Origin: Candidatus Thorarchaeota archaeon SMTZ1-45
Lineage (GTDB): Archaea > Asgardarchaeota > Thorarchaeia > Thorarchaeales > Thorarchaeaceae
Assembly (NCBI GenBank): GCA_001563335.1
Contig: LRSL01000009.1
Coordinates: 1-39,366 of the forward strand
Reading direction: 5' to 3'
Length of the DNA stretch: 39,366 bases
The notes beneath the pieces were generated by a model. It saw only the letters and a program-made list of their open reading frames with translations, was not told where the DNA came from and searched no databases. Positions 4,107-33,491 of the stretch are shown here, one piece after another (position 1 is the stretch's first letter; every line of letters begins with the position of its first letter). The position numbers and the translations under genes were made by a program.

Positions 4107-4160
4107 CACCACAACTTCTATAAACTGAAGACGAACAGATGGCATTTCGTGGGCCAGTGG
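4107..4160 (+). repeat. Degenerate duplicate of the tRNA-Lys promoter plus first 10 nt of the tRNA
   Basis: Ungapped 41/54 match to 4526-4579, including TCTATAAACT and CGTGGGCCAGTGG. Confidence 0.85.
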
Positions 4161-4228: not shown

Positions 4229-4423
4229 TCAACGTTTTCTTAACATGAGCACCACAGCCGCTATTATGAGCACGCAGCCACCAATAAAGAGGAGTAACTT
4301 GAACTGCTCCAACCAATAAGGGGTTGGGACTGAGCCTGGACTAGAACCTCCAAATATCAATAATATGATTCCGAAAAAAAGCAGACTACCCGCTAAATTA
4401 TAGTCCCGCTCCACTGCGGCCAC
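4229..4423 (-). CDS. Small two-TM membrane protein
   Basis: 64 aa, two hydrophobic helices, basic C-terminal tail; TTTATTAA box ~25-30 bp upstream. Confidence 0.65.
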   Translation of the reverse strand: MAAVERDYNLAGSLLFFGIILLIFGGSSPGSVPTPYWLEQFKLLLFIGGCVLIIAAVVLMLRKR

Positions 4424-4535
4424 CTATGCAGAGTAAACAGCTTAGTCTTAATAAACCCAGATATCAAGTATGAAACTTACCTTGCATACTGTCAGTAGCC
4501 AGTTGTACAACACAACCCTCGTTAACACCGCAATC

Positions 4536-4545
4536 TCTATAAACT
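4536..4545 (+). promoter_or_regulatory. TATA box of the tRNA-Lys gene
   Basis: TCTATAAACT ~25-35 bp upstream of tRNA position 1; conserved in the duplicate at 4117-4126. Confidence 0.7.
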
Positions 4546-4569
4546 TACAACAGGCAAAGGGCGTTCCGT

Positions 4570-4707
4570 GGGCCAGTGGCTAAGCCAGGTATAGCGACAG
4601 GCTCTTACTTCTCTCAGGTTATTCTGGGAGGAAGAGAGACTTGTTGGTCGAGGGTTCTGGCTTGTTGATTTCCAACAAGTCGCCCAAAAATCCCTCCTGG
4701 CCCGCCA
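4570..4707 (+). tRNA. tRNA-Lys(CUU) with two introns (4608-4638 at 37/38; 4658-4687 at 56/57), CCA encoded
   Basis: Acceptor GGGCCAG/CTGGCCC+G+CCA; D stem GCTA/TAGC; anticodon stem ACAGG/CTTGT with spliced loop CT-CTT-AA; T stem GAGGG/CCCTC with spliced loop TTCAAAT; both inserts fold into BHB-type motifs. Confidence 0.93.
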
Positions 4708-4710
4708 CAT

Positions 4711-7095
4711 TTACTTCTTCCGAATTACTACAAACAAGACAATTGCAATCCCACCTACAACTCCAATTGTGAATATGATGATAACTATCAGAGTGTCCAG
4801 AGGAGGAGGTCCTGTGGTTGTATCTGAAGCTGTAGATGTAGTGTCGGTTATAGTTGTCGGAAAAGTGGTCGTCGTTGTAGTTGTAGTAGTTGTTACAGTT
4901 TCCTCCACCACTGTGATAATGACCGTGTCTACCAGATTATATCCCGAAGCATCGTTCACTACCAAGGTCAGATTGTAACTACCAACTGATAGACCATTGA
5001 TTGACTTTGATATATGGTCTAGAGAAGAGTTCAAAGAATTTTGAACAATAATTGCTCCTTCCCACAATAACATGTATGATTCGGGATTTGGTAACCTAAC
5101 ATCCCATGAGATCGTAGGGACAATCGAACCAACCACATATTGAACATCATCCTGCCATGTGAGAAAGCCTAACGGATAGTTATCCACACCCATTCCTCCA
5201 ACGGAATAGACACCTTCGCCAGAATAGTCTGACCAGATATTACCCGTGTCTACACCATCATCCCATTCATTCCATATCCCACTATCAACAGCATTACCAG
5301 CCTCATTAAAGCCAATCATGTTGTTATAGATCTCAGAAAAGAGAGTATAGGATCCAAGATTCATTCCATAGTCAGCATTTCCATAGATTCTGTTATCGAG
5401 AATTCTTACGCCTGATGTAAAGTCCAAATGAAGCCCGTCTGACGAACTCCCAAGAATCGTGTTGTTGACAATCTCCAGATAGTTGACAACATAGAGTTCG
5501 AGAGGATCAGTATTATCATAGATCATGTTGTTTCTGACCACTCCGTAGCTGGTGTTAACTATGTTGATAGGATATCCCAGATTTTCATGTATCTGATTGA
5601 AATCAAAAATGTAATTATCAGAGCTAAATACCCAAATACCAAGCCCATTTCTCAGGATTTCACTCTCAGTCACAGTTGTGTAGTCAGATGTGTCAATTTG
5701 GAGTCCTCCAACGGAAGAATCTTTGATGGTCACATTTGTTAGGGTGCAATTGAGTGAGTGTGAAACTTCTATTCCTAAATCGTAGTTATCCACCAATAGA
5801 ACATCCCTTATACTACAATTGAAGCACGAATGAATCGCCATGCCAACAGTCGCAGAGGCGAATGTTCCATTTACTATAGAAAGATGGTTGGAACCTACCA
5901 ACACAAGCTGTCCGTATTCATTCCCGTTGATGGTCAAATCGCCCTGGTTGAGATAGTATCCGAACGGTTTTCCATTGACCGTGTTTCCTGTTTCAGAAAT
6001 AGTCCAGTACTCGGTAGCAGCTCCATTGAATATTATACCACATTCGATGAGAGTATTGTTTCTCAGTGTGGTATTCTCTGACTCGAACAAACTGATACCA
6101 TACAGGTTCTCACTGATTTCCATATCACTGATTGTGCAATTTGAGCACGATAGAAGACTTGGTCCAACTGATACATTGAAGAACACTCCTGAGTCGAGAC
6201 TCACATTGAAGCAGTCGATTAAGAACAGCTGGCCAAATTGATTTCCATCAATCTCGGTATTGTTTGTCCCTAAGAAATATCCAAGGGGTTTACCATTTAC
6301 CATATTCTCGGAGAAGTTGTGCATCCAGTACTCTTTGGACCCTACGATTCCGAAACCCCCATTTTGGAGTATATTGTTGACAAATGTGCAATTTCCAGTC
6401 GACCTGATGTAGAGCCCGAAAAAGCCGCTATCAATTATCTCGTTATCAGCGACTGTGATATTCTCAGAATCTTGAAATCTGATCCCCATTTCTCCGCAAT
6501 TGCGAATATAGTTATTCTCGACAATGGAGTATTTCAGATAGGCTAGATGGAAGCCGTAGCCTTCACAATTAATGACTCTATTCTCACTCAAAGTGCAATT
6601 GTAGCTTGACGCAGCCTGAGCGATTCCATAATAGCCACAGTCAGATAATGTGTTATTTACAATAGTGCAATCAATAGTGCCAATTAAGGCGATTCCAATG
6701 TAGCCGTTAGATATACTACAATTCTCGATAGCACCGTTACTCACATGTGAAAGCCTGATACTATTTGTTTTCACTTCACCTGTTTGCGACAGAACACAGT
6801 TCCTAATGACGAAATGGACATTGGTGTTAAAGATGTATATACATGTACCAGCAGTGACTATTTCCAGTCCTTCGATAATATATGGGGACTGTTGAGTTCC
6901 ATCACCTGGCCATCCCTGTGCTGCGAAAGCGGCATTTCCTGATATTGATATAGGACCATGAGGTACGAGTGATGATGGACTGGTTGAGGTATTTGGAAGC
7001 TCAGTCAAATACACCAGCATAGAACTGACGCTCGCACTAACAATTAACATCCCCACCAAGAAACTCAACAACTGCAGAACATTGATTCTTCTCAC
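4711..7095 (-). CDS. Cell-surface right-handed parallel beta-helix (NosD/CASH-like) repeat protein
   Basis: Signal peptide, GDGTQQSPYIIEG start motif, Asn-rich PbH1-like repeats with an internal duplication (VNGKPLGY/VNGKPFGY), Thr-rich linker, C-terminal TM + RKK. Confidence 0.9.
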   Translation of the reverse strand: MRRINVLQLLSFLVGMLIVSASVSSMLVYLTELPNTSTSPSSLVPHGPISISGNAAFAAQGWPGDGTQQSPYIIEGLEIVTAGTCIYIFNTNVHFVIRNCVLSQTGEVKTNSIRLSHVSNGAIENCSISNGYIGIALIGTIDCTIVNNTLSDCGYYGIAQAASSYNCTLSENRVINCEGYGFHLAYLKYSIVENNYIRNCGEMGIRFQDSENITVADNEIIDSGFFGLYIRSTGNCTFVNNILQNGGFGIVGSKEYWMHNFSENMVNGKPLGYFLGTNNTEIDGNQFGQLFLIDCFNVSLDSGVFFNVSVGPSLLSCSNCTISDMEISENLYGISLFESENTTLRNNTLIECGIIFNGAATEYWTISETGNTVNGKPFGYYLNQGDLTINGNEYGQLVLVGSNHLSIVNGTFASATVGMAIHSCFNCSIRDVLLVDNYDLGIEVSHSLNCTLTNVTIKDSSVGGLQIDTSDYTTVTESEILRNGLGIWVFSSDNYIFDFNQIHENLGYPINIVNTSYGVVRNNMIYDNTDPLELYVVNYLEIVNNTILGSSSDGLHLDFTSGVRILDNRIYGNADYGMNLGSYTLFSEIYNNMIGFNEAGNAVDSGIWNEWDDGVDTGNIWSDYSGEGVYSVGGMGVDNYPLGFLTWQDDVQYVVGSIVPTISWDVRLPNPESYMLLWEGAIIVQNSLNSSLDHISKSINGLSVGSYNLTLVVNDASGYNLVDTVIITVVEETVTTTTTTTTTTFPTTITDTTSTASDTTTGPPPLDTLIVIIIFTIGVVGGIAIVLFVVIRKK

Positions 7096-7263
7096 GAATC
7101 TCCCCAGTACACATTTACCTGTCTGCTATATAAACCAAAGCAATTTATCTATTCATTTATGGACGCTGTAATAGGTTAGAAAATACTGTCTAACTTGCCA
7201 TCACCACTCTATCTATTCTACTTGACCTTACTCAAAGGTATCAGGTATGCCTTTCAGCCAATT

Positions 7264-7283
7264 AAATTCCTCCTAGCCCGCCA
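7264..7283 (+). repeat. tRNA-Lys 3'-end copy 1 (att-like)
   Basis: AAATTCCTCCTAGCCCGCCA vs 4688-4707 AAATCCCTCCTGGCCCGCCA, 18/20. Confidence 0.9.
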
Positions 7284-7353
7284 TTTCATAAAAATTTGCT
7301 TTAATCCAATTCTCTATTATATCATAACTAAGTAGACCATCTGGTTAATCAAA

Positions 7354-8223
7354 ATGGAAGGGATACTCAGAACAGATGCAGGAGAAATCCGTTACTTCTG
7401 GAAGATTTCACTAGCCCTCATCCTGATTATTATGCTAATTGTCATAAGTAGGATTGTCCTGATATTTGCCGTCCAGCAGGTCTTCATTCTTCAAGGTATG
7501 ACCTCCGATATTGCCTTTGAGAACGCACAGGTCTTTGTGTCCGAATCATCAGAGGGTCAGGTGATAGCGAGTTCGCTGGACCTAGTTTTGACACTTCTGC
7601 TTGTACTCTTCCTAGTCACTCGCATCGAGAAACGTGAGTTCCACCTGACCGACCTCGGCTTGGATCTTCAACGTAATATCCTGCCTTTTGTGGGACTAGG
7701 ACTGTTCATGGGATGTGTCCTCTTTCTTGGAGCCGCCATGTTTGGAGTGCTTCTTGGCACACTTGAATTCCCGATATCACCAAATCTCAGCCAGTGGCCA
7801 TTCTTGAGCATGCTAGTTGCTTCAATAGCATTCTACGTCTTGAACAGTTTCTGGCAGGAAGTTCTATTTCGTGGATACTTGCAGACTCGAGCAGTCGGGG
7901 AATTTGGCCGTTTTACTGGAGTGACAGCAGTCACAGTGGTCTTTGTGGTCTTTCATAGCCTAGTTCAAACACTTACACCCATTGGGATTCTAGCAGGTTT
8001 TCTGTTGTTCTCGTTCATAGGTCTATTATATGAAAAGACCAATTCACTCTACCTCGTGGGTGTGATTCATGCAGTTCTAAATTTCCTGCCAGCTCTATTC
8101 AACACATGGTGGCAAGGGCTAGAAGCTGCCATGACATACGGTATTGCACTCATACTATTGATTCTGATGATACACCAAACTGAGCAGAGAGCACAAGTAG
8201 ACTCCAATCACACGCACTTGTAG
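7354..8223 (+). CDS. CPBP (Abi/CAAX protease) family intramembrane metalloprotease
   Basis: Multi-TM; QEVLFRGY, FVVFH and HAVLN motifs (first Glu of EExxxR is Gln). Confidence 0.85.
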   Translation: MEGILRTDAGEIRYFWKISLALILIIMLIVISRIVLIFAVQQVFILQGMTSDIAFENAQVFVSESSEGQVIASSLDLVLTLLLVLFLVTRIEKREFHLTDLGLDLQRNILPFVGLGLFMGCVLFLGAAMFGVLLGTLEFPISPNLSQWPFLSMLVASIAFYVLNSFWQEVLFRGYLQTRAVGEFGRFTGVTAVTVVFVVFHSLVQTLTPIGILAGFLLFSFIGLLYEKTNSLYLVGVIHAVLNFLPALFNTWWQGLEAAMTYGIALILLILMIHQTEQRAQVDSNHTHL

Positions 8224-8233
8224 GATTTTTTTA

Positions 8234-8253
8234 AAATCTCTCCTGGCTCGCCA
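8234..8253 (+). repeat. tRNA-Lys 3'-end copy 2 (att-like)
   Basis: AAATCTCTCCTGGCTCGCCA, 18/20 to 4688-4707. Confidence 0.9.
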
Positions 8254-8283
8254 CACCATTTTGTATGTAGTATCATTAGCAAT

Positions 8284-8958
8284 TTACTGAATAAACATGT
8301 TACCTGCTATCATGACTAGAAACGGGAGATTCACAAGATACATAATAAAATCATAGAGCGCTTCAAAAGCTGGCTCCTTACAAACTAGCTTGGCATATTC
8401 TGTAACTTCGTCCCTACTAGAAAAAAGAGAGGTCAATTCAAGTCGATGGCTTATAGCATCTATTCTATCTTGTTCTCTCTCAAATCTATGCCATCGTCTC
8501 CATACTGACATTGGTAATACCATCACGGAGAAAAAGAAGGTGGTCAAGGCTATGGTATACAAGACACCGAATGGGGAGAGTAGAAATACAAAGTATAGCG
8601 CAGCAACAAGAACAATCAGTGGATAGAGGAACGGAATGAAAAAATCAAGAATGAAAACCTCACGATATGACTCTAACTCATTCTCTTTTTCAATGTCATG
8701 CTCAGTTCTTGCAATGTATAATTTCATACCTGAGAGGAGATCTGTGTCCCTTAACTTAATCTTTAGAAATCCATCATCATCAATACTTGAAGAACACATA
8801 CGTTGCCGAGAAGAATCAGTTTCTTCGAATTCAATCTCAACTCTCTGAAGAACAACATCACTATATCCCTCAGCATAAAGCTCATGGCTTCTCTCAAGTA
8901 TCAACTCTTCGGCTTGTCTTTTCTTCTCTTCATTTTGATGGAAACTCATGTTGTTCAA
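8284..8958 (-). CDS. Hypothetical membrane protein
   Basis: 224 aa, soluble N-terminal part, two central TM helices and a hydrophobic C-terminus. Confidence 0.7.
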   Translation of the reverse strand: MNNMSFHQNEEKKRQAEELILERSHELYAEGYSDVVLQRVEIEFEETDSSRQRMCSSSIDDDGFLKIKLRDTDLLSGMKLYIARTEHDIEKENELESYREVFILDFFIPFLYPLIVLVAALYFVFLLSPFGVLYTIALTTFFFSVMVLPMSVWRRWHRFEREQDRIDAISHRLELTSLFSSRDEVTEYAKLVCKEPAFEALYDFIMYLVNLPFLVMIAGNMFIQ

Positions 8959-9026
8959 TCCATTACTGCAGACTCATCATTCTATCATACAGTGTGAATC
9001 GAGATAATTATTATTGAGAAATCTGT

Positions 9027-9053
9027 GAGAGTTCAAATACCCCTAGCCCGTCA
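9027..9053 (+). repeat. tRNA-Lys 3'-end copy 3, intron-less T-arm form
   Basis: GAGAGTTCAAATACC-CCTAGCCCGTCA vs spliced GAGGGTTC|AAATCCCTCCTGGCCCGCCA, 23/28 with one gap. Confidence 0.85.
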
Positions 9054-9144
9054 TCTACATCTAACTGTTCGCTGAATCGTAGTAAGCAGTATCACTCATA
9101 GAATAGTTCAGTAGAATTGCTTACTATACCGCGATAAAGAAACA

Positions 9145-9165
9145 GGGGCATCCCAAAGACACCCC
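9145..9165 (-). terminator. Hairpin followed by T-rich tract downstream of the 75-aa gene
   Basis: Minus strand GGGGTGTC-TTTGG-GATGCCCC then TGTTTCTTT. Confidence 0.5.
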
Positions 9166-9191
9166 CACTCAAGTTGCTGTTGTATTATAAT

Positions 9192-9419
9192 CTAGTCTGC
9201 ATGACGCATTGTGGTATAAGCATCGATGATGCGCCACAGACCATGCACAACTACGAACGCTAGAGCACTCCACGTTATCATATTTGCATATGTGCTGGAA
9301 CTGATTAGTGTACCACCAATTTCATAGATATATGGTATAAAAGCAAAAATCAAGACAATTTCTAGAATTCCCATGATCAGCTGACCCACAAAGCGTGGTT
9401 TTGCTACGCCTTTCTTCAT
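9192..9419 (-). CDS. Small two-TM membrane protein
   Basis: 75 aa with two hydrophobic helices; GGGAG SD-like upstream. Confidence 0.7.
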   Translation of the reverse strand: MKKGVAKPRFVGQLIMGILEIVLIFAFIPYIYEIGGTLISSSTYANMITWSALAFVVVHGLWRIIDAYTTMRHAD

Positions 9420-9523
9420 TATATTAGAAACTCTCCCAAAGTTTGTGCAATCATTCTACAACGGATATTTAACTCATACTTCTGTTTTCTAGGTCCTTTA
9501 ATAAGTCAATGAGATTATTCTAA

Positions 9524-9545
9524 TTCAAATTCCTCTGGTCCGCCA
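9524..9545 (+). repeat. tRNA-Lys 3'-end copy 4, intron-less T-loop form
   Basis: TTCAAATTCCTC-TGGTCCGCCA vs spliced TTC|AAATCCCTCCTGGCCCGCCA, 20/23 with one gap. Confidence 0.85.
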
Positions 9546-9659
9546 TGCTATCTTACATAAAGAATTGTCAGCTAGTATTGATGAACAGCCGCCATCTTCA
9601 TTGAGGCCGCCAAGCTCTAGGTTCATGCTCCCACAATGTCAGACGGTCGTTCTGGCATT

Positions 9660-10448
9660 TCACAGGACTTTAGGCAGGGTGTCAGAAACCCACTTCTCAT
9701 GAGCGAGATCAATGTCCTGAGATGAAAGCACGTAGTCTAGGTATCTCATATGGTCCTCAACACATCTTGCAATCGCATCATCAGACAGATTATGTATTCC
9801 CCAGTGTTGAGCCATTCTTTCTAATACCTCAAGAGGACTCCGCCAGTAGTTATGAAGATGAATGATCTTTACCTTGAACCCTATGGCCTCCATGCCTCTC
9901 TTGAAGGACTCTATTACTCCGCCATAGAGGACAACGGTCCAAGGATTTCTTTCAGCATGAAAGCTAATATTCTCAATGATGCGACGAAATCCCTTGGCGG
10001 TGAGTTCAAGTTGTTCTTCAAACAGGTCCCTCCATGCACTAATCTTAATCCTTCTCCGAGCACGCTCGCTTGTTTCCAAAAGTAAGGACTTCTCTAGAAG
10101 GCTATGAGCATCCATATGAATTTCCAAATCGTGATAACAGTAGACCTCAAGTCTTGGAATACTTTTCTTGAGTTGGTGCAGAGCGTCTAGAAGGGGGTCG
10201 ACGGTATATCTCAGTGCATTGACATAGGGGTCCTGCAGACCAGTCAGATAGATGTAGCTTTGCCATAACTCCTCTCTGGACACTTCTCCCACCATATAGT
10301 GATTGACGAAATTCGTCATGTCCTCTGGCAGCGCCAAGAAGAGTATCTTGTAGTTTCCCTTTGCCAGCCATTCAATCGCTCTTTCAGTCGTCTTCCTGAG
10401 CTTGGTGAGGACCAAAGTCAAGAGTGTTGGCAACACTGCTGCCTCCAT
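9660..10448 (-). CDS. Hypothetical protein
   Basis: 262-aa ORF 12 bp downstream of the PCM gene, same strand; no motif recognised. Confidence 0.7.
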   Translation of the reverse strand: MEAAVLPTLLTLVLTKLRKTTERAIEWLAKGNYKILFLALPEDMTNFVNHYMVGEVSREELWQSYIYLTGLQDPYVNALRYTVDPLLDALHQLKKSIPRLEVYCYHDLEIHMDAHSLLEKSLLLETSERARRRIKISAWRDLFEEQLELTAKGFRRIIENISFHAERNPWTVVLYGGVIESFKRGMEAIGFKVKIIHLHNYWRSPLEVLERMAQHWGIHNLSDDAIARCVEDHMRYLDYVLSSQDIDLAHEKWVSDTLPKVL

Positions 10449-10460
10449 GTTCTTTGCTAT

Positions 10461-11168
10461 TCAGTCGGACCAACCATGTTTCCCTTTGAGAGGAACGTAT
10501 AGGACTTTTTCTATGAACTTCCTCCTCAAAGTCCCATCCTTGTCCTGTTCTATCAGAATCAAGTCCTGAGCTCTTTCTGGAGATCCGACAGGCGCCATCA
10601 GCCTACCTTGAATCGCGAGCTGGTGAATCAATGGGCGAGGTATCTCAGGGCATGTGGCGGTGATGCAGATCTTGTCGTATGGAGCATCTGGTGCATAACC
10701 CAAAGAACCATCACCATGGATGAGAAAGACATCATCATAGTCTAACCTTTTCATGTTCCGCCTAGCAAAGTTGTATGTTTCCTCATCAATCTCGATTGTG
10801 ACGACTCTTCCATCTGGACCTACAATCTCCCTAGCCAAGGCTGCCCCATATCCAGAACCAGTACCCACTTCGAAGAGCTTCTCACCTGCTTTGAGTCCCA
10901 GAGCCTCATAGAACAACGGATAGCTATGAGGACATGAGATTGTGGCATCACGCCCTGGAAGCGGGAATGGGAGTTCGTGATATGCATAATCTCTGTACTG
11001 CTCAGGAACAAACTCCTCCCTTGGAACCTTGAGCATCGCCTTGATAATCCCTTTAGATTTTAAGAAGCCCTCCTGTGTCAGCCACTTGACCTTCTCTTCT
11101 CTTTCTTTTTCAAATTCTTTCTTTGTCTTTTCCGGTACCTTAGGATGAGGAATAGTCCAACCAACCAT
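10461..11168 (-). CDS. pcm: Protein-L-isoaspartate O-methyltransferase, paralog 1
   Basis: VPREEFV, ATISCPH, EVGTGSGY, GDGSLGY, APYDKI, YVPL motifs. Confidence 0.9.
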   Translation of the reverse strand: MVGWTIPHPKVPEKTKKEFEKEREEKVKWLTQEGFLKSKGIIKAMLKVPREEFVPEQYRDYAYHELPFPLPGRDATISCPHSYPLFYEALGLKAGEKLFEVGTGSGYGAALAREIVGPDGRVVTIEIDEETYNFARRNMKRLDYDDVFLIHGDGSLGYAPDAPYDKICITATCPEIPRPLIHQLAIQGRLMAPVGSPERAQDLILIEQDKDGTLRRKFIEKVLYVPLKGKHGWSD

Positions 11169-11368
11169 CTCAATGTGGAATTCACTGGGATCGAAATAAA
11201 CGAATCGGAATTGGCTTCTAGTTTTAGTCTATCGAATGTGGAGAATTGCTATATTAGTATCTCCAATGTTATTCTATATTCCATCCAGAATCTGAAACGA
11301 TTTCTAGAATTAAATCTCCTGATGAACCATTGTAAAGCAATGATTATGTAAATGGGCTAGGCACGAAA

Positions 11369-12358
11369 CTAATTAGACATTGTTTTAAGCCGTGAAATTA
11401 TCTCTTCAGCCTCAACCATTATTCTATCCAACAATTCCTTAACAGTAGGAATATCTTTGATCAAGCCTACGCCTTGACCACAAGCCACTACTCCAAGGTC
11501 AATATCTCCTTCCCTGTACATCTTTTCAGCTTTATCTCCAGATGCAGCTTGAATGAGCTTGAAGAGAGGAGCTCCTTCAGCCTCTAGTTCAAGCACGTGT
11601 TGCGCTGCTTTGTTGTTCCACAGTCTGTGAGTGTTTCCAACAGAACGCAAAGCTAAAACTGTATCAATTTCTGCTGCTTTAACGAAAGCCTGTTTGAGAT
11701 TGTCATGAATGGGACATTCCTTTGTAGCCATCAGCCTTGTGCCCATAATTACTCCTTCAGCGCCGAGTGCCAATGCCGCAGCAACACCCCTCCCATCAGT
11801 TATTCCCCCACCTGCAATTACAGGAACATCTAGAGCATCAACCACGGATGGAGTCATCACCATCGTTCCGATATCTAAGACTCCAGTAGCTCCACCATTC
11901 TCATATCCCACAACCGTTACTATGTCAGCACCTAGGGATGCTCCTTTTTTCGCATATCTTACCCCAGCACATTTGTGAATCCAGATAGCGCCACCATCCT
12001 TGAATTTAGGAACCAGATCCTCTGGAGCTTTGTGACCACTTGTTTCGATGATTTTCACTTCCTCAGCTAATGTGGCATCAACATAATCTTCTAGCTTTTC
12101 CTGAGGCATTAATGCGGGGAACAAATTGATATTCACGGCAAATGGTTGATCTGTAAGAGATTGTGTCTTTTTGATTGCATCGCGTAGATCATCAGGAGAC
12201 TTGTAATTTGCACTGGCTAGTACAGCACAGGCACCAGCATTACTAGCTGCTGCGACAAACTCTGGATTGGAAATCCTTGCCATGGTACCTGCTATAATCG
12301 GATATTTACATCCCAACATCTCAGTTACTTTTGTCTTTATCATTTGATTCACCCACAC
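11369..12358 (-). CDS. Nitronate monooxygenase / FabK-like flavoprotein (likely start ATG 12343)
   Basis: KYPIIAG, PFAVN, VPVIAGGGITDGRG, GVIMGTR, CGQGVGLI motifs. Confidence 0.88.
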   Translation of the reverse strand: MWVNQMIKTKVTEMLGCKYPIIAGTMARISNPEFVAAASNAGACAVLASANYKSPDDLRDAIKKTQSLTDQPFAVNINLFPALMPQEKLEDYVDATLAEEVKIIETSGHKAPEDLVPKFKDGGAIWIHKCAGVRYAKKGASLGADIVTVVGYENGGATGVLDIGTMVMTPSVVDALDVPVIAGGGITDGRGVAAALALGAEGVIMGTRLMATKECPIHDNLKQAFVKAAEIDTVLALRSVGNTHRLWNNKAAQHVLELEAEGAPLFKLIQAASGDKAEKMYREGDIDLGVVACGQGVGLIKDIPTVKELLDRIMVEAEEIISRLKTMSN

Positions 12359-12559
12359 ATCACTTGAACACCGACTAAATTCTCACAGATAAATATCGTT
12401 ATCAAATAGAACAATCGCTGCAAAGCTCTACTGATATGGAATTGTTCAAATTGCTCCTAGCCTTCAATTTTTCCTTTTTTTCGTAATCTCTATCCACTTG
12501 AATTGCTTTCCTCCCTCACGTAGTAATTCCTCAACAGACATATCTGAAAAGTAGTTGAT

Positions 12560-13643: not shown

Positions 13644-13875
13644 GCTTTTTCTTGCTGCGGTCGGATCAACTTGGATGTTTCGCCTTGAATCTTGCCTAGC
13701 TTGCCTCTTATCTTCAACCTGACTCGAAATCTGATTGTTTTTCTTTCATCTAGCTCCAGTTGTGGCGGGTCAAGATTATGATATGATTAATTGTGTGTCT
13801 AGACATGCAAAAGAAGTCCTGTCATAAATAATCATCCAATGGCTTACATTATAAAGAAAATACAGACATGAGTCG

Positions 13876-22597: not shown

Positions 22598-23653
22598 ATG
22601 ATGACATCAAAAAAACTATTCCTGAAGGTTGCAGCCACTGATGGAGAGCGAACTAGAAAGGCACTTCTAGAACATAATTTGCTTGACACAAACCACAAGA
22701 TATTGTCACAAGACAGCTCACTCTTCATACCTCTCATTCATGAGGTCAAGAAGGAATCTATTGACTCAATGCTTGGTCCTATCAACTATGAAACTGGAGA
22801 AATGGAATTTGCCCCCATATCTGAAGGTCCTAAGAACCTAATAGAAGCCCTTGCAGATCATCTCAGTCCTACTGAACTTGACCTTGTTCCTCGAGCATAT
22901 GATCTGATTGGGGATATCGCTATTCTGGAGATACCCGAAGAACTATCGAGGCACAGTGAAACAATTGGTCGAGCATTCCACAGTCTCCATAAGAATTTCT
23001 CTACAGTTCTAGCCAAAAAAGGTGCAATCTCAGGGACTACAAGAGTCAGAGAGTATCAGCATCTTGCAGGTGATAAGAAGACAGACACCATTCACATTGA
23101 ATATGGCTGTCGAATTGCAGTTAATCTGTCAAAAGCCTACTTCAGTCCGAGATTACTTGAAGAACACAACAGAATAGCTCAGCTCACAAAGGACAATGAG
23201 TTTGTAGTGGATATGTTCTGTGGTGTTGGTCCATTTCCAATCCACATAGCAAAACAGAGGAAAGCTCATGTTGTAGCCATAGACATCAATCCTGCTGCAA
23301 TAGCTCTTCTCAAAAAGAGTATAGGATTGAATAGACTGGTTGGAACGATTGAGCCAATTGTTGGAGATGTCAAAAGCTTCACCAAGAGGGACATCGCTGA
23401 TCGAGTCATAATGAACCATCCATCAGGAGCGTTTGACTTTGTTTCTGATGCCTGTCGTATCTTGAAACCACAGGGAGTACTACACTACTATGATTTCCAT
23501 GGTGGGAATAATCCAGAGAATGCAATTGCCGACAAGCTCACTCAGCTGGTCAAAGATGCTGGTCATTCTGTTGTCAACGTGAACTTTGTGAGGAGAGTTC
23601 GGGATAGCGCACCATACGAGTATCAAATGGTGGTTGATGCGATTATTGCGTAA
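22598..23653 (+). CDS. trm5: Trm5/Tyw2-family tRNA methyltransferase (m1G37 type)
   Basis: YDLIGDIAI, YFSPRL..EH, VDMFCGVGPF, DRVIMNHP. Confidence 0.85.
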   Translation: MMTSKKLFLKVAATDGERTRKALLEHNLLDTNHKILSQDSSLFIPLIHEVKKESIDSMLGPINYETGEMEFAPISEGPKNLIEALADHLSPTELDLVPRAYDLIGDIAILEIPEELSRHSETIGRAFHSLHKNFSTVLAKKGAISGTTRVREYQHLAGDKKTDTIHIEYGCRIAVNLSKAYFSPRLLEEHNRIAQLTKDNEFVVDMFCGVGPFPIHIAKQRKAHVVAIDINPAAIALLKKSIGLNRLVGTIEPIVGDVKSFTKRDIADRVIMNHPSGAFDFVSDACRILKPQGVLHYYDFHGGNNPENAIADKLTQLVKDAGHSVVNVNFVRRVRDSAPYEYQMVVDAIIA

Positions 23654-25492: not shown

Positions 25493-26146
25493 TCAGTCCT
25501 TCAAGCGCGCTTCAACATCATCCAGTTTTTTCATCAGCTTACTCTGCCCAAAGGCTCTTGTGAGGTCTCCACGAGTTCGCTCAACCAGAGACCGTCCAAC
25601 ATCACATTTTCTTCTTAAATCGGGAACTAACGCATTGGGATAATCGAACGAATGCAGCTCCTCGAGAATTTCCTCCATGAAGCCTAAGAGGGTTTCAGCC
25701 TTCTCCAAATTATCATTACGCAAAAGATCCAGTGTAGCTCTTCTCAGCTCGCCCACTGTATCTGCAAGACCATTTAGGTATGCTCTTGATGGGATGCCAT
25801 ATTCATCAGGAGGTGTGAATTTGTTAGATTCCAAGAGTGAGAGTAGGTTCACAGCCTCAGTCAGTTCCTGATAGGCAATATCAAGACCTCTTGACTTTAA
25901 CATGAAGTCACTAACAGAAATTTCTTGTGAGGCCTCAATAATCAACTGTTTGGCCTCACTGACCAAGATTTTAGCTTCGCTAAATTCTCCTCTGTGTGTC
26001 ATTTTGATTGCCTCACTACACTTACGAACAGCCTTTCTTCCAAGTGGCAGTGTTCTCTCTCGAACTGAATCATCTTCATCAATCTCGTTTCGAAGTGGTG
26101 TGAGGATATCTGCTAGTTTCATCTTATTCCTCCTCGCTTCAGTCAT
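25493..26146 (-). CDS. Translin/TRAX family protein (archaeal C3PO-like)
   Basis: QELTEA, YLNGLADTVGELRR, LRRKCD motifs. Confidence 0.88.
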   Translation of the reverse strand: MTEARRNKMKLADILTPLRNEIDEDDSVRERTLPLGRKAVRKCSEAIKMTHRGEFSEAKILVSEAKQLIIEASQEISVSDFMLKSRGLDIAYQELTEAVNLLSLLESNKFTPPDEYGIPSRAYLNGLADTVGELRRATLDLLRNDNLEKAETLLGFMEEILEELHSFDYPNALVPDLRRKCDVGRSLVERTRGDLTRAFGQSKLMKKLDDVEARLKD

Positions 26147-27105
26147 AGCTTCTTAATTTGTTTACTGCGTGAAAGCAGTACAACCCTGCTCTCAACCTGC
26201 TCATCCAGAAGATAATATCCTGTCAATGCTGCAAGCCTCTCTGAAAATGCATAAATCTCACGATGCGTGGGCACATTGTTCTGGTCTAGACGACCTCTTG
26301 AGGACCCTAGGAACATATACCCCTTAACTTCAATGAAGTCAGGTTCACCTATTTCGATGAGTCTAGAATAAGCTCGCTCATTATGCATGTTTCTATTTGC
26401 CACCATTGTCAATCTATTGACAGTTCTGGTGCTAAGAGACTGCAGTGTTTCTTGTGATTTCAGAATACGAGTCCAACCATCACGAAGGCCTGGTCTGCAG
26501 AGTGTTTTGTAAGTACTTTCATCAGCTGCTGCAAGTGTCACATATAGCTGCGTCGGTAAAGACATTGTTGATAATACATCTGGCTGAGTACCATTTGTCA
26601 CAAGAAATGATGTCATACCTCTTTGATGAATCTCATCGATGAGGTCACTTAGTAGAGGATAAAGTGTTGGCTCTCCTGCCAATGAGATTGCTACATGCTT
26701 TGGGTCTCTCGCTTCTTTGTACTTTCTCTCTGGAACCATTGCATTGACTTCAGGATTATATCCTCCAAGAGACCTCAGGTTTGCCATAAATACAGCATCC
26801 ATGAGCTCTTTAACGGGCATCACATCTGAAATAGACACATCTATCTGATTCCAGCTCACTCCAATATCTGAAGGAGTTATCCGCCAACAGAACTCGCAGC
26901 TCTGAGTGCACTTATCTACGACAGGAGTCATTTGAAGGCATTGGTGAGACTGGATTCCATAGAATCGTTGTTTGTAGCATGAGGTATCATGAAGAAGCGC
27001 TTTCTTTTGCCACTGACAAGCCTTGTAGGCACCTCTACTTCCAAGTAGATGGTACCCTTGTTTCTCGAGCTTTTCGCTCAACTCAATTGGCATGTCAGAG
27101 TTCAA
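26143..27105 (-). CDS. taw1: 4-demethylwyosine synthase (TYW1/Taw1), radical SAM
   Basis: CYKQRFYGI.SHQCLQMTP, CTQSCEFCWR, AISLAGEPTLY, EVKGYM..G.SR. Confidence 0.95.
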   Translation of the reverse strand: MNSDMPIELSEKLEKQGYHLLGSRGAYKACQWQKKALLHDTSCYKQRFYGIQSHQCLQMTPVVDKCTQSCEFCWRITPSDIGVSWNQIDVSISDVMPVKELMDAVFMANLRSLGGYNPEVNAMVPERKYKEARDPKHVAISLAGEPTLYPLLSDLIDEIHQRGMTSFLVTNGTQPDVLSTMSLPTQLYVTLAAADESTYKTLCRPGLRDGWTRILKSQETLQSLSTRTVNRLTMVANRNMHNERAYSRLIEIGEPDFIEVKGYMFLGSSRGRLDQNNVPTHREIYAFSERLAALTGYYLLDEQVESRVVLLSRSKQIKKL

Positions 27106-29116: not shown

Positions 29117-30178
29117 TTGACTAAGTTGAGAAGACTCAATCCCTTTGCAAACATCCCAACTATATTGACTGCAGAGGAGATTATCAAGTTTGCTCATAAT
29201 AGGTCAACCAAGATTAGCATGAAAAGCTCGCTCAGAATGAAGAAGATTGAGCGAAGTCGCATCAGAGAAGTTGCCAGACTTCAAGAGTTTACAAAACAGG
29301 TCAAGACAAAGCTTTCCGAGGCTGTGGAGCAATTTCCCTCAGTGGAACGACTTCATCCATTTTATGTAGAACTATCTGAAATCCTGGTGGGCAACGACAG
29401 ACTAAAGCAGTCCCTAGGAGCTGTCTACAATTGTATTCCTCCAATTGATGATATCACTGACAAACACCTTCAAGCGATCAAACTCGCAGATGATTTTCGT
29501 CAGATGAAAAAATCAAGAAGCGCCGCCAAGGGACGAATCTCCTCAATTATCCGAGCAACAGCTGACAATCTGGACTTCATAATTAATGCGAAAAACACTC
29601 TCTCTAAACTCCCTGGAATCACACCCAACTCTCCAACCATAGTCTGTGCAGGGTTTCCTAATGTGGGAAAATCAACACTCGTGAAGGCTGTTTCTACAGC
29701 TGAGCCAGAGATTGCATACTATCCCTTCACTACAAAAAGTGTGATAATCGGACACTTGAAAGTGGACAATCACAATGTACAGATTGTGGACACCCCAGGG
29801 ATCCTTGACAGACCTATGGCAAAGCGAAATGAGATTGAACGTGAGGCAATTGCCGCGTTGAAGTACCTAGCAAATGTCATCATCTTCATGATCGACCCCT
29901 CAGAAACATGTGGATGGACATTTGACCAACAACTGAATCTATTGAACGAGGTCCAGAAGATGTTTCCAATAAACCCACTTTTGATAGTCCTGAACAAGAT
30001 TGACATCACTCCCGTCGAGAAGCTAGAAGAGGCTAGAAAGAAACTGCCTAAGTGTCATGAGATTGTAGCTTCTGAGGGAATTGGGGTTGAGAAACTGATC
30101 AAAAAAGCAGTTGAAGAGGTAGACCTGACTTCACTTCAAGAGTCTATTGATGAATATCTCGCATCTTTGTCAGAGTGA
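29117..30178 (+). CDS. Nog1-family (Obg-like) GTPase
   Basis: LHPFY, GFPNVGKS, YPFTT, DTPGILDRP, NKID. Confidence 0.92.
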   Translation: MTKLRRLNPFANIPTILTAEEIIKFAHNRSTKISMKSSLRMKKIERSRIREVARLQEFTKQVKTKLSEAVEQFPSVERLHPFYVELSEILVGNDRLKQSLGAVYNCIPPIDDITDKHLQAIKLADDFRQMKKSRSAAKGRISSIIRATADNLDFIINAKNTLSKLPGITPNSPTIVCAGFPNVGKSTLVKAVSTAEPEIAYYPFTTKSVIIGHLKVDNHNVQIVDTPGILDRPMAKRNEIEREAIAALKYLANVIIFMIDPSETCGWTFDQQLNLLNEVQKMFPINPLLIVLNKIDITPVEKLEEARKKLPKCHEIVASEGIGVEKLIKKAVEEVDLTSLQESIDEYLASLSE

Positions 30179-31231
30179 CAATCCTCTACCTTCCACGAGA
30201 ACAGTTCCAGGTTCTCCAGTTCTGCCCTGCACATCGATTCGTGTTCCTAGGACCTTCTTTACCGCCCAGATATTTGTCGTTAGATGGGATGTTACCATTG
30301 CCACACCAATCTTACTTGTTCCCTTTGCCATTGCTAGATAGGGGATTAGCATGTCACAAAGATGAGAATCTATTGCCTTTCCTGTTGAAACTTCGGCTAC
30401 CAATTGAGAGGCTGCATCAACTCCAACACTTTCTGCACTCTTCCCACGTTCACCAAGTTCGTCCGCGCCCATTCTGAACCCACGTTCTGATTGAGCCCAA
30501 ATCACTATACCACTTCCTGGCCCTAAATGTGGGTCTTCTTCCCTACTATAGGACTCACGAGCTATGTCTGGCTCAACCTCCAGATGCTTGATTATGATCT
30601 CCCCTGCAGATGCTGCCTGTCTTTCTGCTATATGCTCAGGCAAACGAACACAATGGGATATTCCTCCTACACTGCTGATATTTCCAAATTGAGTCCCCTC
30701 AAGTGGTTTGATACTATCCACCGGAGTTACTTCACATATTACATTTCCACCACCTCTGGGAAAATGACCGCGTTTTCTCTGAAGAATCTGTATCTTTGGC
30801 CCCAAAATCTCCAATGTGTGTACGAAGACATTGTTCAAGTAATCAATCGGTGGACTCCATTTCACATCTGTTCCACCTCGGAGCTTGAAGCTGATGGGTT
30901 CTGAGGACAATACTGCAGGAGGAAGTGCCGCCTGAAGAACGAGGGAGATTGAGCCTGCTGTACCTACATCATAGCTTATCGTACCGCCTCGACGTTGGCG
31001 TGGTACAAATTCTACAACCGTACTTCCTACTTGCAACCCCTTGATTTCAGCATCAACGATTTTTCCTGTGATCTCAATCCCAGCAATGTGCTGATTCTTG
31101 AGACCTGGCTTTGGTCTACCTGCACGTATATTGAAAACTCGAACTGGCCTCATGGTCAGTGCTGAGAGTGAAACCGCTGTGCGTAAAATCTGACCACCAC
31201 CCTCACCATATGAGCCATCTATTTCAATCAT
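30170..31231 (-). CDS. rtcA: RNA 3'-terminal phosphate cyclase
   Basis: IDGSYGEGGGQILR, RPKPGL, GGTDV, SHLTTN. Confidence 0.95.
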   Translation of the reverse strand: MIEIDGSYGEGGGQILRTAVSLSALTMRPVRVFNIRAGRPKPGLKNQHIAGIEITGKIVDAEIKGLQVGSTVVEFVPRQRRGGTISYDVGTAGSISLVLQAALPPAVLSSEPISFKLRGGTDVKWSPPIDYLNNVFVHTLEILGPKIQILQRKRGHFPRGGGNVICEVTPVDSIKPLEGTQFGNISSVGGISHCVRLPEHIAERQAASAGEIIIKHLEVEPDIARESYSREEDPHLGPGSGIVIWAQSERGFRMGADELGERGKSAESVGVDAASQLVAEVSTGKAIDSHLCDMLIPYLAMAKGTSKIGVAMVTSHLTTNIWAVKKVLGTRIDVQGRTGEPGTVLVEGRGLSL

Positions 31232-32012: not shown

Positions 32013-33491
32013 ATGAGTAACGAAAAAGACGATACGAAACTTGTCATCTTTGACATGGACAAAGAGAACAACTTCCCTGATTGGTACACCGAGATATGTA
32101 GAGTTGCTGAGCTGGCAGATGTCAGGTATGGCGTGAAGGGATTTACCCCATTTCTTCCTTGGAGTTTCATGAGCATGAACCTGATGTTTGAAATCTTAGA
32201 AGATGTACTCCAGCGAAAGGACCATCTGCCCATGTTGTTTCCCACTGTGATTCCTGAGAGCAATCTCACAAAGGAGGCAGAACATATTGAGGGGTTCACT
32301 CCTCAGGTATTCTGGATTGAAGAAATCGGCGCAGGTGAAAAATTGGAGGAGCGATTGGCACTAAGACCCACAAGTGAAACTGCAATCTACCCTATGTATT
32401 CACTCTGGGTACGTAGCTGGCGTGATCTCCCCATGAAAAGATACCAGCGATGTTCTGTCTTCAGATCAGAGGTAAAGAGTACACGTCCATTTCTGCGTGG
32501 AAGAGAGTTTCTGTGGATTGAGAGTCATAATGTCTATGCTACTCATGAAGAAGGAAAAGCACAAGTCATTGAGGACTTGGAAACCTCTAAAGAAGTCTGT
32601 ACAGATAACTTCGGACTACCTGTCATGGTGTTTCGAAGAAGCCAATGGGATAAATTTCCTGGTGGTTTGAACACATATGCTGCGGACACATTAATGCCGG
32701 ATGGTAAGGTGATTCAGCTCCCTTCAACGCATGACTTGGGTGATAACTTTGCCAAAGCCTTTGACATTAAATTTCTCAGCAAGGACAATGAAACAGTCTA
32801 TGCATGGCAGACGTGCTATGGACCTGCCATCTCGAGAATTTATGGTGCAATGATCTCTGTTCATGGCGATAATAAGGGCCTCAGACTGCCTTTCAAGGTC
32901 GCTCCCTATCAGGTGGTGATTGTCCCTATATTCAAGGGGAAAAACATTGACACTGTTCTAAAATATTGTAAAGACATCAAGAAGCTGTTGAAGAAGTCCG
33001 GAATTCGAGTTCATCTTGATGATAGCGACATGACTCCTGGTTGGAAATATCATTACTGGGAAATGAAAGGAGTCCCCATACGAGTAGAGGCTGGTCCCCG
33101 TGACATCAAACACAACAGTGTTGTGTTGTTCCGTCGAGATACTATGAAACGCCAAACTGTAAACTTGAAAGAAGTGAAAAAGAGGGTCGTAGCTCTAGGA
33201 AAAGAAATTGATGCTAACCTTCTCAAGATGGCTGAGGCTAAGTTTGAAGGTCTTATTGTCGATGCAGAACGCCTTGGGGAGATAGACGATGCATTGGACC
33301 ATGGGAAAATTGCACGAGTCCCCTTCTGTTCCATAGAGATGGATGCTTATTCCTGTGCTGAACAGATCGAGAAGAACACCCGGGGCGAAATCCGTGGGAC
33401 CCGAATCGACATCGATGAAGAACCTGAGGGAGTCTGCGTTGTATGTGGGAAGGTAGCCAAAGAGGTCGTTTATATAGCCCGCTCCTATTAG
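32013..33491 (+). CDS. proS: Proline--tRNA ligase (archaeal/eukaryotic type)
   Basis: KEAEHIEGF, LRPTSET, FLRGREFLW, C-terminal ARSY. Confidence 0.96.
   Translation: MSNEKDDTKLVIFDMDKENNFPDWYTEICRVAELADVRYGVKGFTPFLPWSFMSMNLMFEILEDVLQRKDHLPMLFPTVIPESNLTKEAEHIEGFTPQVFWIEEIGAGEKLEERLALRPTSETAIYPMYSLWVRSWRDLPMKRYQRCSVFRSEVKSTRPFLRGREFLWIESHNVYATHEEGKAQVIEDLETSKEVCTDNFGLPVMVFRRSQWDKFPGGLNTYAADTLMPDGKVIQLPSTHDLGDNFAKAFDIKFLSKDNETVYAWQTCYGPAISRIYGAMISVHGDNKGLRLPFKVAPYQVVIVPIFKGKNIDTVLKYCKDIKKLLKKSGIRVHLDDSDMTPGWKYHYWEMKGVPIRVEAGPRDIKHNSVVLFRRDTMKRQTVNLKEVKKRVVALGKEIDANLLKMAEAKFEGLIVDAERLGEIDDALDHGKIARVPFCSIEMDAYSCAEQIEKNTRGEIRGTRIDIDEEPEGVCVVCGKVAKEVVYIARSY

Follow-up and report, generated by a model that had tools for sequence, protein, structure and literature searches.

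The DNA studied here is a 39,366-nt stretch from Candidatus Thorarchaeota archaeon SMTZ1-45 (contig LRSL01000009.1, positions 1-39,366; the window, meaning the whole stretch), in which a tRNA-Lys(CTT) gene (4570-4707, + strand; the resident gene) is followed within 7.8 kb by five partial, same-strand copies of its own 3′ end, all of them intergenic. The window is contig C9 in an assembly of 3.54 Mb and 119 contigs (87.7% complete, 5.8% contamination). Overall, we consider it likely that these repeats are DNA-level copies of an attachment (att) site, derived from serial recombination at the 3′ end of tRNA-Lys(CTT) with a core reaching from T54 to CCA. The genome under study is labelled G000, other G numbers denote the genomes of relatives and L numbers denote individual loci or contigs.

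The resident gene comprises three exons (4570-4607, 4639-4657 and 4688-4707, +) separated by an anticodon-loop intron (4608-4638, 31 nt, +) and a T-loop intron (4658-4687, 30 nt, +) at position 56/57. Neither ARAGORN nor Rfam detected a tRNA in the raw window, the doubly interrupted gene being invisible to both; ARAGORN called it after in-script removal of the 30 nt at 4658-4687. The fold of the pre-tRNA-Lys(CTT) had a z of -4.78. The splice position in the T loop is unambiguous (TTC, 30 nt, AAAT), as the insert lies between C56 and A57 and cannot slide. A homologous 30-nt insert at 56/57 was present in an alignment of 12 species, on which we tested a proposed structure consisting of a 4-bp helix, formed by the 5′ strand of the T stem and the 3′ end of the intron, beside a 9-bp internal hairpin. 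Across helix and hairpin 96.2% of cells were paired, the 4-bp helix (GGGU/GCCC) was paired in 100% across the 12 species, and compensatory changes affected both sides in 8 of the 9 hairpin pairs. The observed pairing was not attained in any of 500 shuffles, and slid partners paired in only 26-48%. A bulge-helix-bulge motif is defined by splice sites that lie unpaired around a 4-bp helix, with a canonical bulge of 3 nt. Both inferred splice sites are located within unpaired stretches adjoining the 4-bp helix, and the arrangement is a relaxed form of this motif, with a 3′ bulge longer than the canonical 3 nt. Judged by covariation, the T-loop insert is a real intron, and its removal from the RNA is predicted. 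A look for RNA runs containing the stretch returned none. The CCA was described as genome-encoded in the initial annotation, which we confirmed: the resident gene carries it, and 39 of the 42 tRNA genes examined end in CCA.

All five distal copies lie on the + strand. Copy 1 (7230-7283) contains an insert and consists of cTCAA (7231-7235), a 28-nt intron-like insert (7236-7263) and a 20-nt copy of exon 3 with two mismatches (7264-7283). Copy 2 (8231-8253), the right end of a cassette that encodes a CAAX protease, has TTA before AAAT and two mismatches in the 20-mer; it is the orthologue of a copy in G024, which has TTC. Copy 3 (9027-9053; core 9032-9053) has GAGAG, TTC and AAAT unbroken across the 56/57 junction and reads GAGAGTTCAAAT on to a CCA-like end, with four mismatches and a 1-nt gap over 28 nt; its orthologue in G005 reads GAGAATTC before AAAT and the left flank is conserved. 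Copy 4 (9524-9545) reads TTCAAAT on to CCA, likewise unbroken, with two mismatches and a 1-nt gap (a 1-nt deletion), and is the orthologue of a copy in locus L075, again with a conserved left flank. Copy 5 (12444-12466), a decayed copy with GTTC then AAAT, forms the right end of a nitronate monooxygenase (NMO) cassette (about 11362-12466) and has clear copies as positional orthologues in G024 and G007. The initial annotation had drawn attention to copies 3 and 4 for running unbroken across the position at which the resident gene has its 30-nt intron, and we found this in both; it had overlooked copy 2 and the intron-like insert ahead of 7264-7283. Inspection by eye also showed what may be a decayed copy (about 11306-11329) and, near 13760, a 9-mer on the reverse strand.

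Local alignment against a 28-mer spliced in-script gave scores of 30 (7264), 31 (8231), 29 (9027), 29 (9524) and 23 (12444), while the best score per shuffle in 100 dinucleotide shuffles of the remaining window had a mean of 21.8 (standard deviation 2.0) and a maximum of 29. Four copies thus reach or exceed the null maximum, and copy 5 is not significant alone. Across the 3.54-Mb assembly, matches to exon 3 with at most two mismatches were confined to the Lys array (3 of 3, the gene included). A search of the window with a 10-nt motif allowing two mismatches returned 37 matches vs 47 expected. Copy 4 extends just 3 nt (TTC) past the junction, which is weak alone; it becomes convincing because of the pattern found throughout the genus.

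In a BLAST search of the gene against 40 relatives, orthologues were found in most of the 24 same-genus genomes, and several exon-3-like matches lay near many of them. A search with a profile made from the copies (nhmmer, E <= 0.01), covering 21 congener loci sets and 70 NMO-linked loci, yielded 92 non-redundant copies, 22 resident and 70 distal, the latter including at least two resident genes (G016 2786 and L075 39) missed by the 5′-end filter. TTC stood directly ahead of (A/G)AAT in 45 of the 70 distal copies (about 1 in 64 would be expected by chance), and nine of these also had the 5′ strand of the T stem. In 69 distal copies, conservation started at -3 (T 0.81, T 0.74, C 0.75), -4 was at background (G 0.41), and the position following CCA (+1) was T in 0.86. 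The sharp start of conservation at T54 therefore defines the repeated unit as T54-A76 (23 nt) plus a T, with a continuous T loop. Since a core of this kind natively contains an uninterrupted T loop, reading through the junction is not a sign of splicing. The Islander paper names three subsites at which integrases cross over in tRNA genes, the anticodon loop, the T loop and the T/acceptor junction, and the 5′ boundary of the fragments falls at the T-loop subsite. The same arrays were present on 21 metagenome contigs. L148 and L151 combine a GAAT-type resident gene with an AAAT-type distal copy.

We compared the fragments with 41 ARAGORN calls plus the resident gene, a set that is incomplete in that ARAGORN overlooks tRNA genes interrupted by non-canonical introns. 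Copies 3-5 were matched best by the end of spliced Lys(CUU). At 7264, where the match is to exon 3 only, the genomic form was marginally best (17 vs 16). Second to the own gene came Lys(UUU) for all copies except 9524, for which an Ala gene tied with the genomic form above Lys(UUU). This isoacceptor, encoded on contig C69, had been put forward by the initial annotation as a possible donor; on such a view the fragments would stem from it or from some other tRNA gene of this genome whose T loop is continuous. The T loop of Lys(UUU) is uninterrupted and its match is second-best. However, spliced Lys(CUU) outscored Lys(UUU) for every fragment (16 vs 14, 17 vs 15, 16 vs 12 and 13 vs 11), orthologous copies in congeners have the T-stem and acceptor bases of Lys(CUU), and a whole-genome scan returned no 3′ end closer to the copies than that of spliced Lys(CUU). 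We therefore give an isoacceptor donor next to no credence.

The copies bound cassettes of about 0.5-3 kb (4708-12443 in the window) that encode ordinary-looking proteins, small membrane proteins among them. These include a NosD/beta-helix protein (4711-7095, - strand), the CAAX protease (7354-8223, +) and, at 9660-12358 (-), a 262-aa protein, PCMT and NMO; a 224-aa protein (8284-8958, -) and a 75-aa protein (9192-9419, -) lie between these. The cassettes contained no integrase, reverse transcriptase or viral hallmark in Pfam and PHROGs searches, the sole PHROGs match among seven cassette proteins being a weak, tail-spike-like one for the beta-helix protein. Congeners share blocks of cassettes in other orders, and homology breaks at the copies. 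The locus is bounded by a conserved upstream gene and by prolyl-tRNA synthetase (ProRS), which is 20-31 kb away in G000, G005, G024 and G018. The order is NosD, CAAX, C, X2, NMO, GNAT, HTH10 in the genome under study, C, NosD, CAAX, NMO, HTH10, X2 in G005 and GNAT, CAAX, HTH10, NMO in G018; NMO directly follows CAAX in G024, and the NMO cassette directly follows the tRNA gene in G007. Orthologues exist for every copy in the window, with flanks that are conserved to the left and diverge to the right, which assigns a copy to the cassette at its left.

Copies of the own 3′ end were also found in the same genome beside Ala(GGC) (five in 8 kb; C15:51490-59400), Leu(GAG) (three in 2 kb; C34:10448-12600) and Gln(TTG) (two; C101:2011-3500), spaced by 0.5-2.4 kb and each beginning at the T-loop (T)TC. 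Such arrays are thus a general phenomenon in this organism. An ARAGORN call on C15 of a tRNA-Tyr with a 1245-nt intron, ending in an Ala fragment, is probably an artefact. These arrays bear on an alternative explanation, namely that no site-specific recombinase is involved and that cassettes are shuffled solely when the 23-nt repeats undergo homologous recombination or gene conversion, also between strains. The coincidence of homology breaks with repeats agrees with such shuffling, as does the lack of an integrase near any array. Against this, 23 nt is short as a substrate for homologous recombination. Moreover, the arrays at all four tRNA genes have the sharp T54 boundary in common, which is typical of integrase identity blocks. 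Hence, we regard shuffling by homology alone as a live alternative, though an unlikely one.

Six distal copies of the genus carry an insert between a TTC-like triplet and AAAT (G005 3589, G017 5384, G004 4058, G000 7264, G014 10232 and G018 2283), and these inserts are homologous to the resident T-loop introns of other genomes (local scores of 14-20 vs <=10 for a reversed-sequence null). The copy in the window is one of them: its insert (7236-7263) matched an intron of a second family from G022 at 18 of 28 positions in an alignment, with a local score of 16 vs 6 for the reversed-sequence null, and differs in family from the resident intron, which belongs to family 1. A copy at a contig end in G020 contains the 5′ strand of the T stem, a whole second-family intron and exon 3. 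The initial annotation had proposed that the fragments might derive from mature tRNA by an RNA-templated step, through complementary DNA of the spliced tRNA-Lys or as the minus-strand primer-binding sites of a retroelement, and copies 3-5 do span the splice junction and are complementary, on the minus strand, to the tRNA 3′ end. Intron sequence cannot come from mature tRNA, and the reverse transcriptase family PF00078 had 0 matches in the 87.7%-complete assembly, so a step of this kind is not needed. Furthermore, by Pfam and PHROGs the cassettes contain neither a reverse transcriptase nor a long-terminal-repeat-like gene, and intron-less alleles occur at the DNA level in congeners. A retroviral primer-binding site measures 18 nt, whereas the repeat starts at T54 and measures 23 nt, and the supposed resemblance found no support. 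A 2026 preprint likewise reports no reverse-transcription signal for Asgard tRNA introns. An RNA-templated origin is accordingly most improbable.

The structure of the resident gene was found to be extremely variable among congeners. Of 24 distinct resident alleles, four are intron-less and three have only an anticodon-arm intron (30/31 or 37/38), so that seven lack a T-arm intron; the remaining 17 have a 30-nt intron in the T arm, ten of them combined with an anticodon-arm intron and seven with a third intron as well, which is 30 nt long and lies in the variable region. The allele of L052 is fully intron-less and identical to the joined exons of the gene studied here. Thus, an intron-less tRNA matching the fragments better, which according to the initial annotation would make intron gain and RNA templating superfluous, was not found in the genome itself but is present in congeners. 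The T-arm introns form at least three groups, with family 1 at 56/57 in this genome and 11 others, a second family in the same loop in G022 and G010, and a third group at 53/54 in G003, G006 and G017; L060 has unrelated sequence at the latter position. Both types of anticodon-arm intron were found combined with each of the three T-arm groups, which requires recombination within the gene or repeated transfer.

On a tree of 24 genomes built from ProRS as the only marker and rooted at its midpoint (6 of 21 forks open), intron states were patchy, and G008, G011, G014 and G021, which lack a T-arm intron, were interspersed. The sisters G000 and G010 differ in both arms (37/38 and family 1 vs 30/31 and family 2), and G024 and G007 differ in two introns. 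Family 1 occurs in both main clades, with much diverged sequences and a retained structure, which suggests an old intron. These data bear on whether the scars predate the intron, that is, whether the array was built on a continuous T loop, gained the 56/57 intron later and was then inherited vertically. Copies 3-5 are more decayed than copies 1-2, as expected of older events, and intron turnover is fast enough, given that states differ even between sister species. However, the apparent age of family 1 speaks against this order of events, the non-colinear cassettes indicate that the array is not a simple fossil record, and the intron in the copy nearest the gene is of a different family; we consider it improbable. 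Among the origins offered by the initial annotation, att sites from donors with intron-less alleles therefore fit best: 7 of the 24 alleles of the genus lack a T-arm intron, and the copies travel with the cassettes at their left. Scars older than the intron are less likely, and RNA templating found no support.

Several further observations at the locus concern other alleles of the gene. Another tRNA-Lys(CTT) allele is represented by an internal fragment (2784-2825, +) 1.75 kb upstream of the resident gene, which comprises the anticodon arm with an intron of the 30/31 type; this fragment was matched in BLAST by resident genes of eight congeners (G003, G004, G005, G008, G009, G010, G016 and G023) and also by a reverse-strand fragment in G020. 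In locus L026 (G014:C69), a divergent, fully intron-less tRNA-Lys(CTT) is oriented opposite to the adjacent array, whose first copy retains a family-1 intron at its 3′ end, as if an older interrupted gene had been replaced. In the public runs X2 and X3, a contig tracks the gene to 4600 and then enters an allele with a 30/31-type intron. Such alternative joins in public runs imply that allelic forms of the locus coexist in nature.

If the repeats are att copies, each would close a small gene cassette on the right and would move with it. The resident bulge-helix-bulge-type intron at 56/57 would split the core, so that distal copies would look spliced without any RNA intermediate. Excision and re-insertion of cassettes may be carried out by a putative tyrosine-type integrase acting in trans or by recombination between repeats, and insertion could take place at any uninterrupted copy. 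The 56/57 intron would then disable the resident gene as a target while intron-less distal copies would stay usable. Introns of family 1 and of the second family are predicted to split the resident core, and the 53/54 intron to leave it whole. One hint agrees with this: in the two genomes with the 53/54 intron, 4 of 4 distal copies share the unusual T-stem bases of the resident gene compared to 5 of 24 at the other 12 loci, which is weak evidence given that these genomes are kin.

A number of results weigh against att copies as the origin of the repeats. The recombinase families PF00589 and PF00239 had 0 matches in the window or the assembly; PF00589 was also searched for in five congeners and across the genus, where it matched in only 8 of 28 genomes, no match lying near an array, and none of 20 integrase loci (about 1.5 kb of flank each) contained a tRNA-Lys copy. 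So few PF00589 matches are unexpected if an archaeal XerA-type recombinase is universal, and incompleteness of the metagenome-assembled genomes (MAGs) may explain part of this. Viral contigs had 0 matches to the 23-nt core, and no excision joint between copies was present in the contigs of four public DNA runs. All genomes are draft MAGs, from which mobile elements are often left unbinned, and some of the differences in cassette order could be assembly chimeras. TTC is lacking in 25 of the 70 distal copies, many of which are simply decayed. The T-stem bases of distal copies matched the resident allele in 9 of 28 cases vs 4.4 ± 2.0 after permutation (171 of 5000 permutations were as high), a weak tracking that is driven by G017 and G003 and falls to 5 of 25, not significant, without G017. 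Three viral matches to a 19-nt pattern were rejected as chance, on contigs of 57-63% G+C without tRNAs.

Integron cassette arrays have reportedly been found in Archaea (PMC9668308). Similar to the arrays described here, integron arrays consist of units of one to three genes that each end in a recombination site, in an order that differs between relatives. Here, however, the site is a segment of a tRNA gene, the mobility of cassettes is deduced from comparison alone, and neither a tyrosine recombinase nor IntI was found in the window or the assembly; hairpins of the attC type were not searched for. The cis-mobilizable elements (CIMEs) of Streptococcus are att-flanked, integrase-less segments in tandem with integrative elements, with a helper integrase supplied by a known neighbour. 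Like the cassettes, CIMEs pile up beside a target gene without an integrase of their own, but they are bacterial and have a known helper element, and no helper was found here.

In overall layout, the arrays resemble the well-known tandem tDNA islands of the Islander type (sublocation classes of Williams 2002), in which an intact tRNA gene is likewise followed by 3′ fragments in the same orientation, the identity block runs from the T loop to the 3′ end and the content varies between relatives. The present arrays differ from these islands in having no integrase per cassette, short segments (about 0.5-3 kb) and five or more fragments in a row. The Islander paper counts only four tandems of three or more among 3919 islands, under a filter that requires an integrase in each member. 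With respect to introns, Randau and Söll (2008) proposed that tRNA introns protect against integration, and Sugahara et al. (2012; PMC3293823) that introns may be carried by att sites and that integration is blocked where an intron lies inside attB. In the Caldiarchaeum case of the latter, the intron state is polymorphic at one locus and tRNA fragments are scattered beside the gene, as here; that case concerns a single tRNA-Thr locus, with a 5′ fragment, an intron at 24/25 and an insert that encodes a recombinase, whereas the present one comprises many species, 3′ fragments and a T-loop intron exactly in the core, without a recombinase. A 56/57 intron that splits the core fits both the protection proposal and the Sugahara model, protection itself being deduced, and is no proof of either. 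The related Asgard genomes thus offer a natural series in which one tRNA gene has a T loop that is continuous, split at 56/57 or interrupted at 53/54, and which makes testable both the 2008 proposal of protection by introns and the 2012 proposal of intron delivery by att sites.

Among Asgard archaea, mobile elements with integration at tRNA genes are on record for Heimdallarchaeia. The 2026 preprint states that mobile-element hallmarks are not enriched within 5 kb of Asgard tRNA intron gains and leaves the route of arrival open; its main text contains no word starting with 'thor'. Since the arrays described here are without hallmark genes, they would escape a 5-kb hallmark screen. No description of short arrays delimited by tRNA fragments in Asgard archaea was found in the literature searched, which is no proof that there is none. 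Arrays of att scars are themselves known, and what is new is the intron in the crossover core of a reshuffling, integrase-less Asgard cassette array. More tentatively, and with more doubt than confidence on our part, small integrase-less cassettes throughout the genus, each with a 23-nt tRNA segment from T loop to CCA, could form integron-like reshuffling arrays behind several tRNA genes; tRNA-Lys(CTT) introns inside the site (56/57) or exactly at its edge (53/54) would serve the host or the resident element to disable it, and the intron-bearing att copies of six genomes would move introns between genomes. If true, this would directly link mobile elements to the turnover of tRNA introns in Asgard archaea.

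On the 5′ side of the resident gene, a 54-nt direct repeat (4107-4160 and 4526-4579, +; 76% identical) spans the tRNA promoter region and the gene's first 10 nt. Between the two repeats lies a 0.37-kb insert with an open reading frame for a 64-aa membrane-like protein (4229-4423, -); G008 and G020 have this insert and G022 lacks it, which indicates an insertion scar on the 5′ side as well. In runs X2 and X3, a replacement joint from 11174 to 11393 exchanges the intergenic stretch between PCMT and NMO for 104 other letters. Finally, the conserved part of the window encodes tRNA-related enzymes, namely a Trm5/TYW2-type methyltransferase (22598-23653), a radical SAM protein of wyosine formation (26143-27105), the RNA 3′-phosphate cyclase RtcA (30170-31231) and ProRS (32013-33491).

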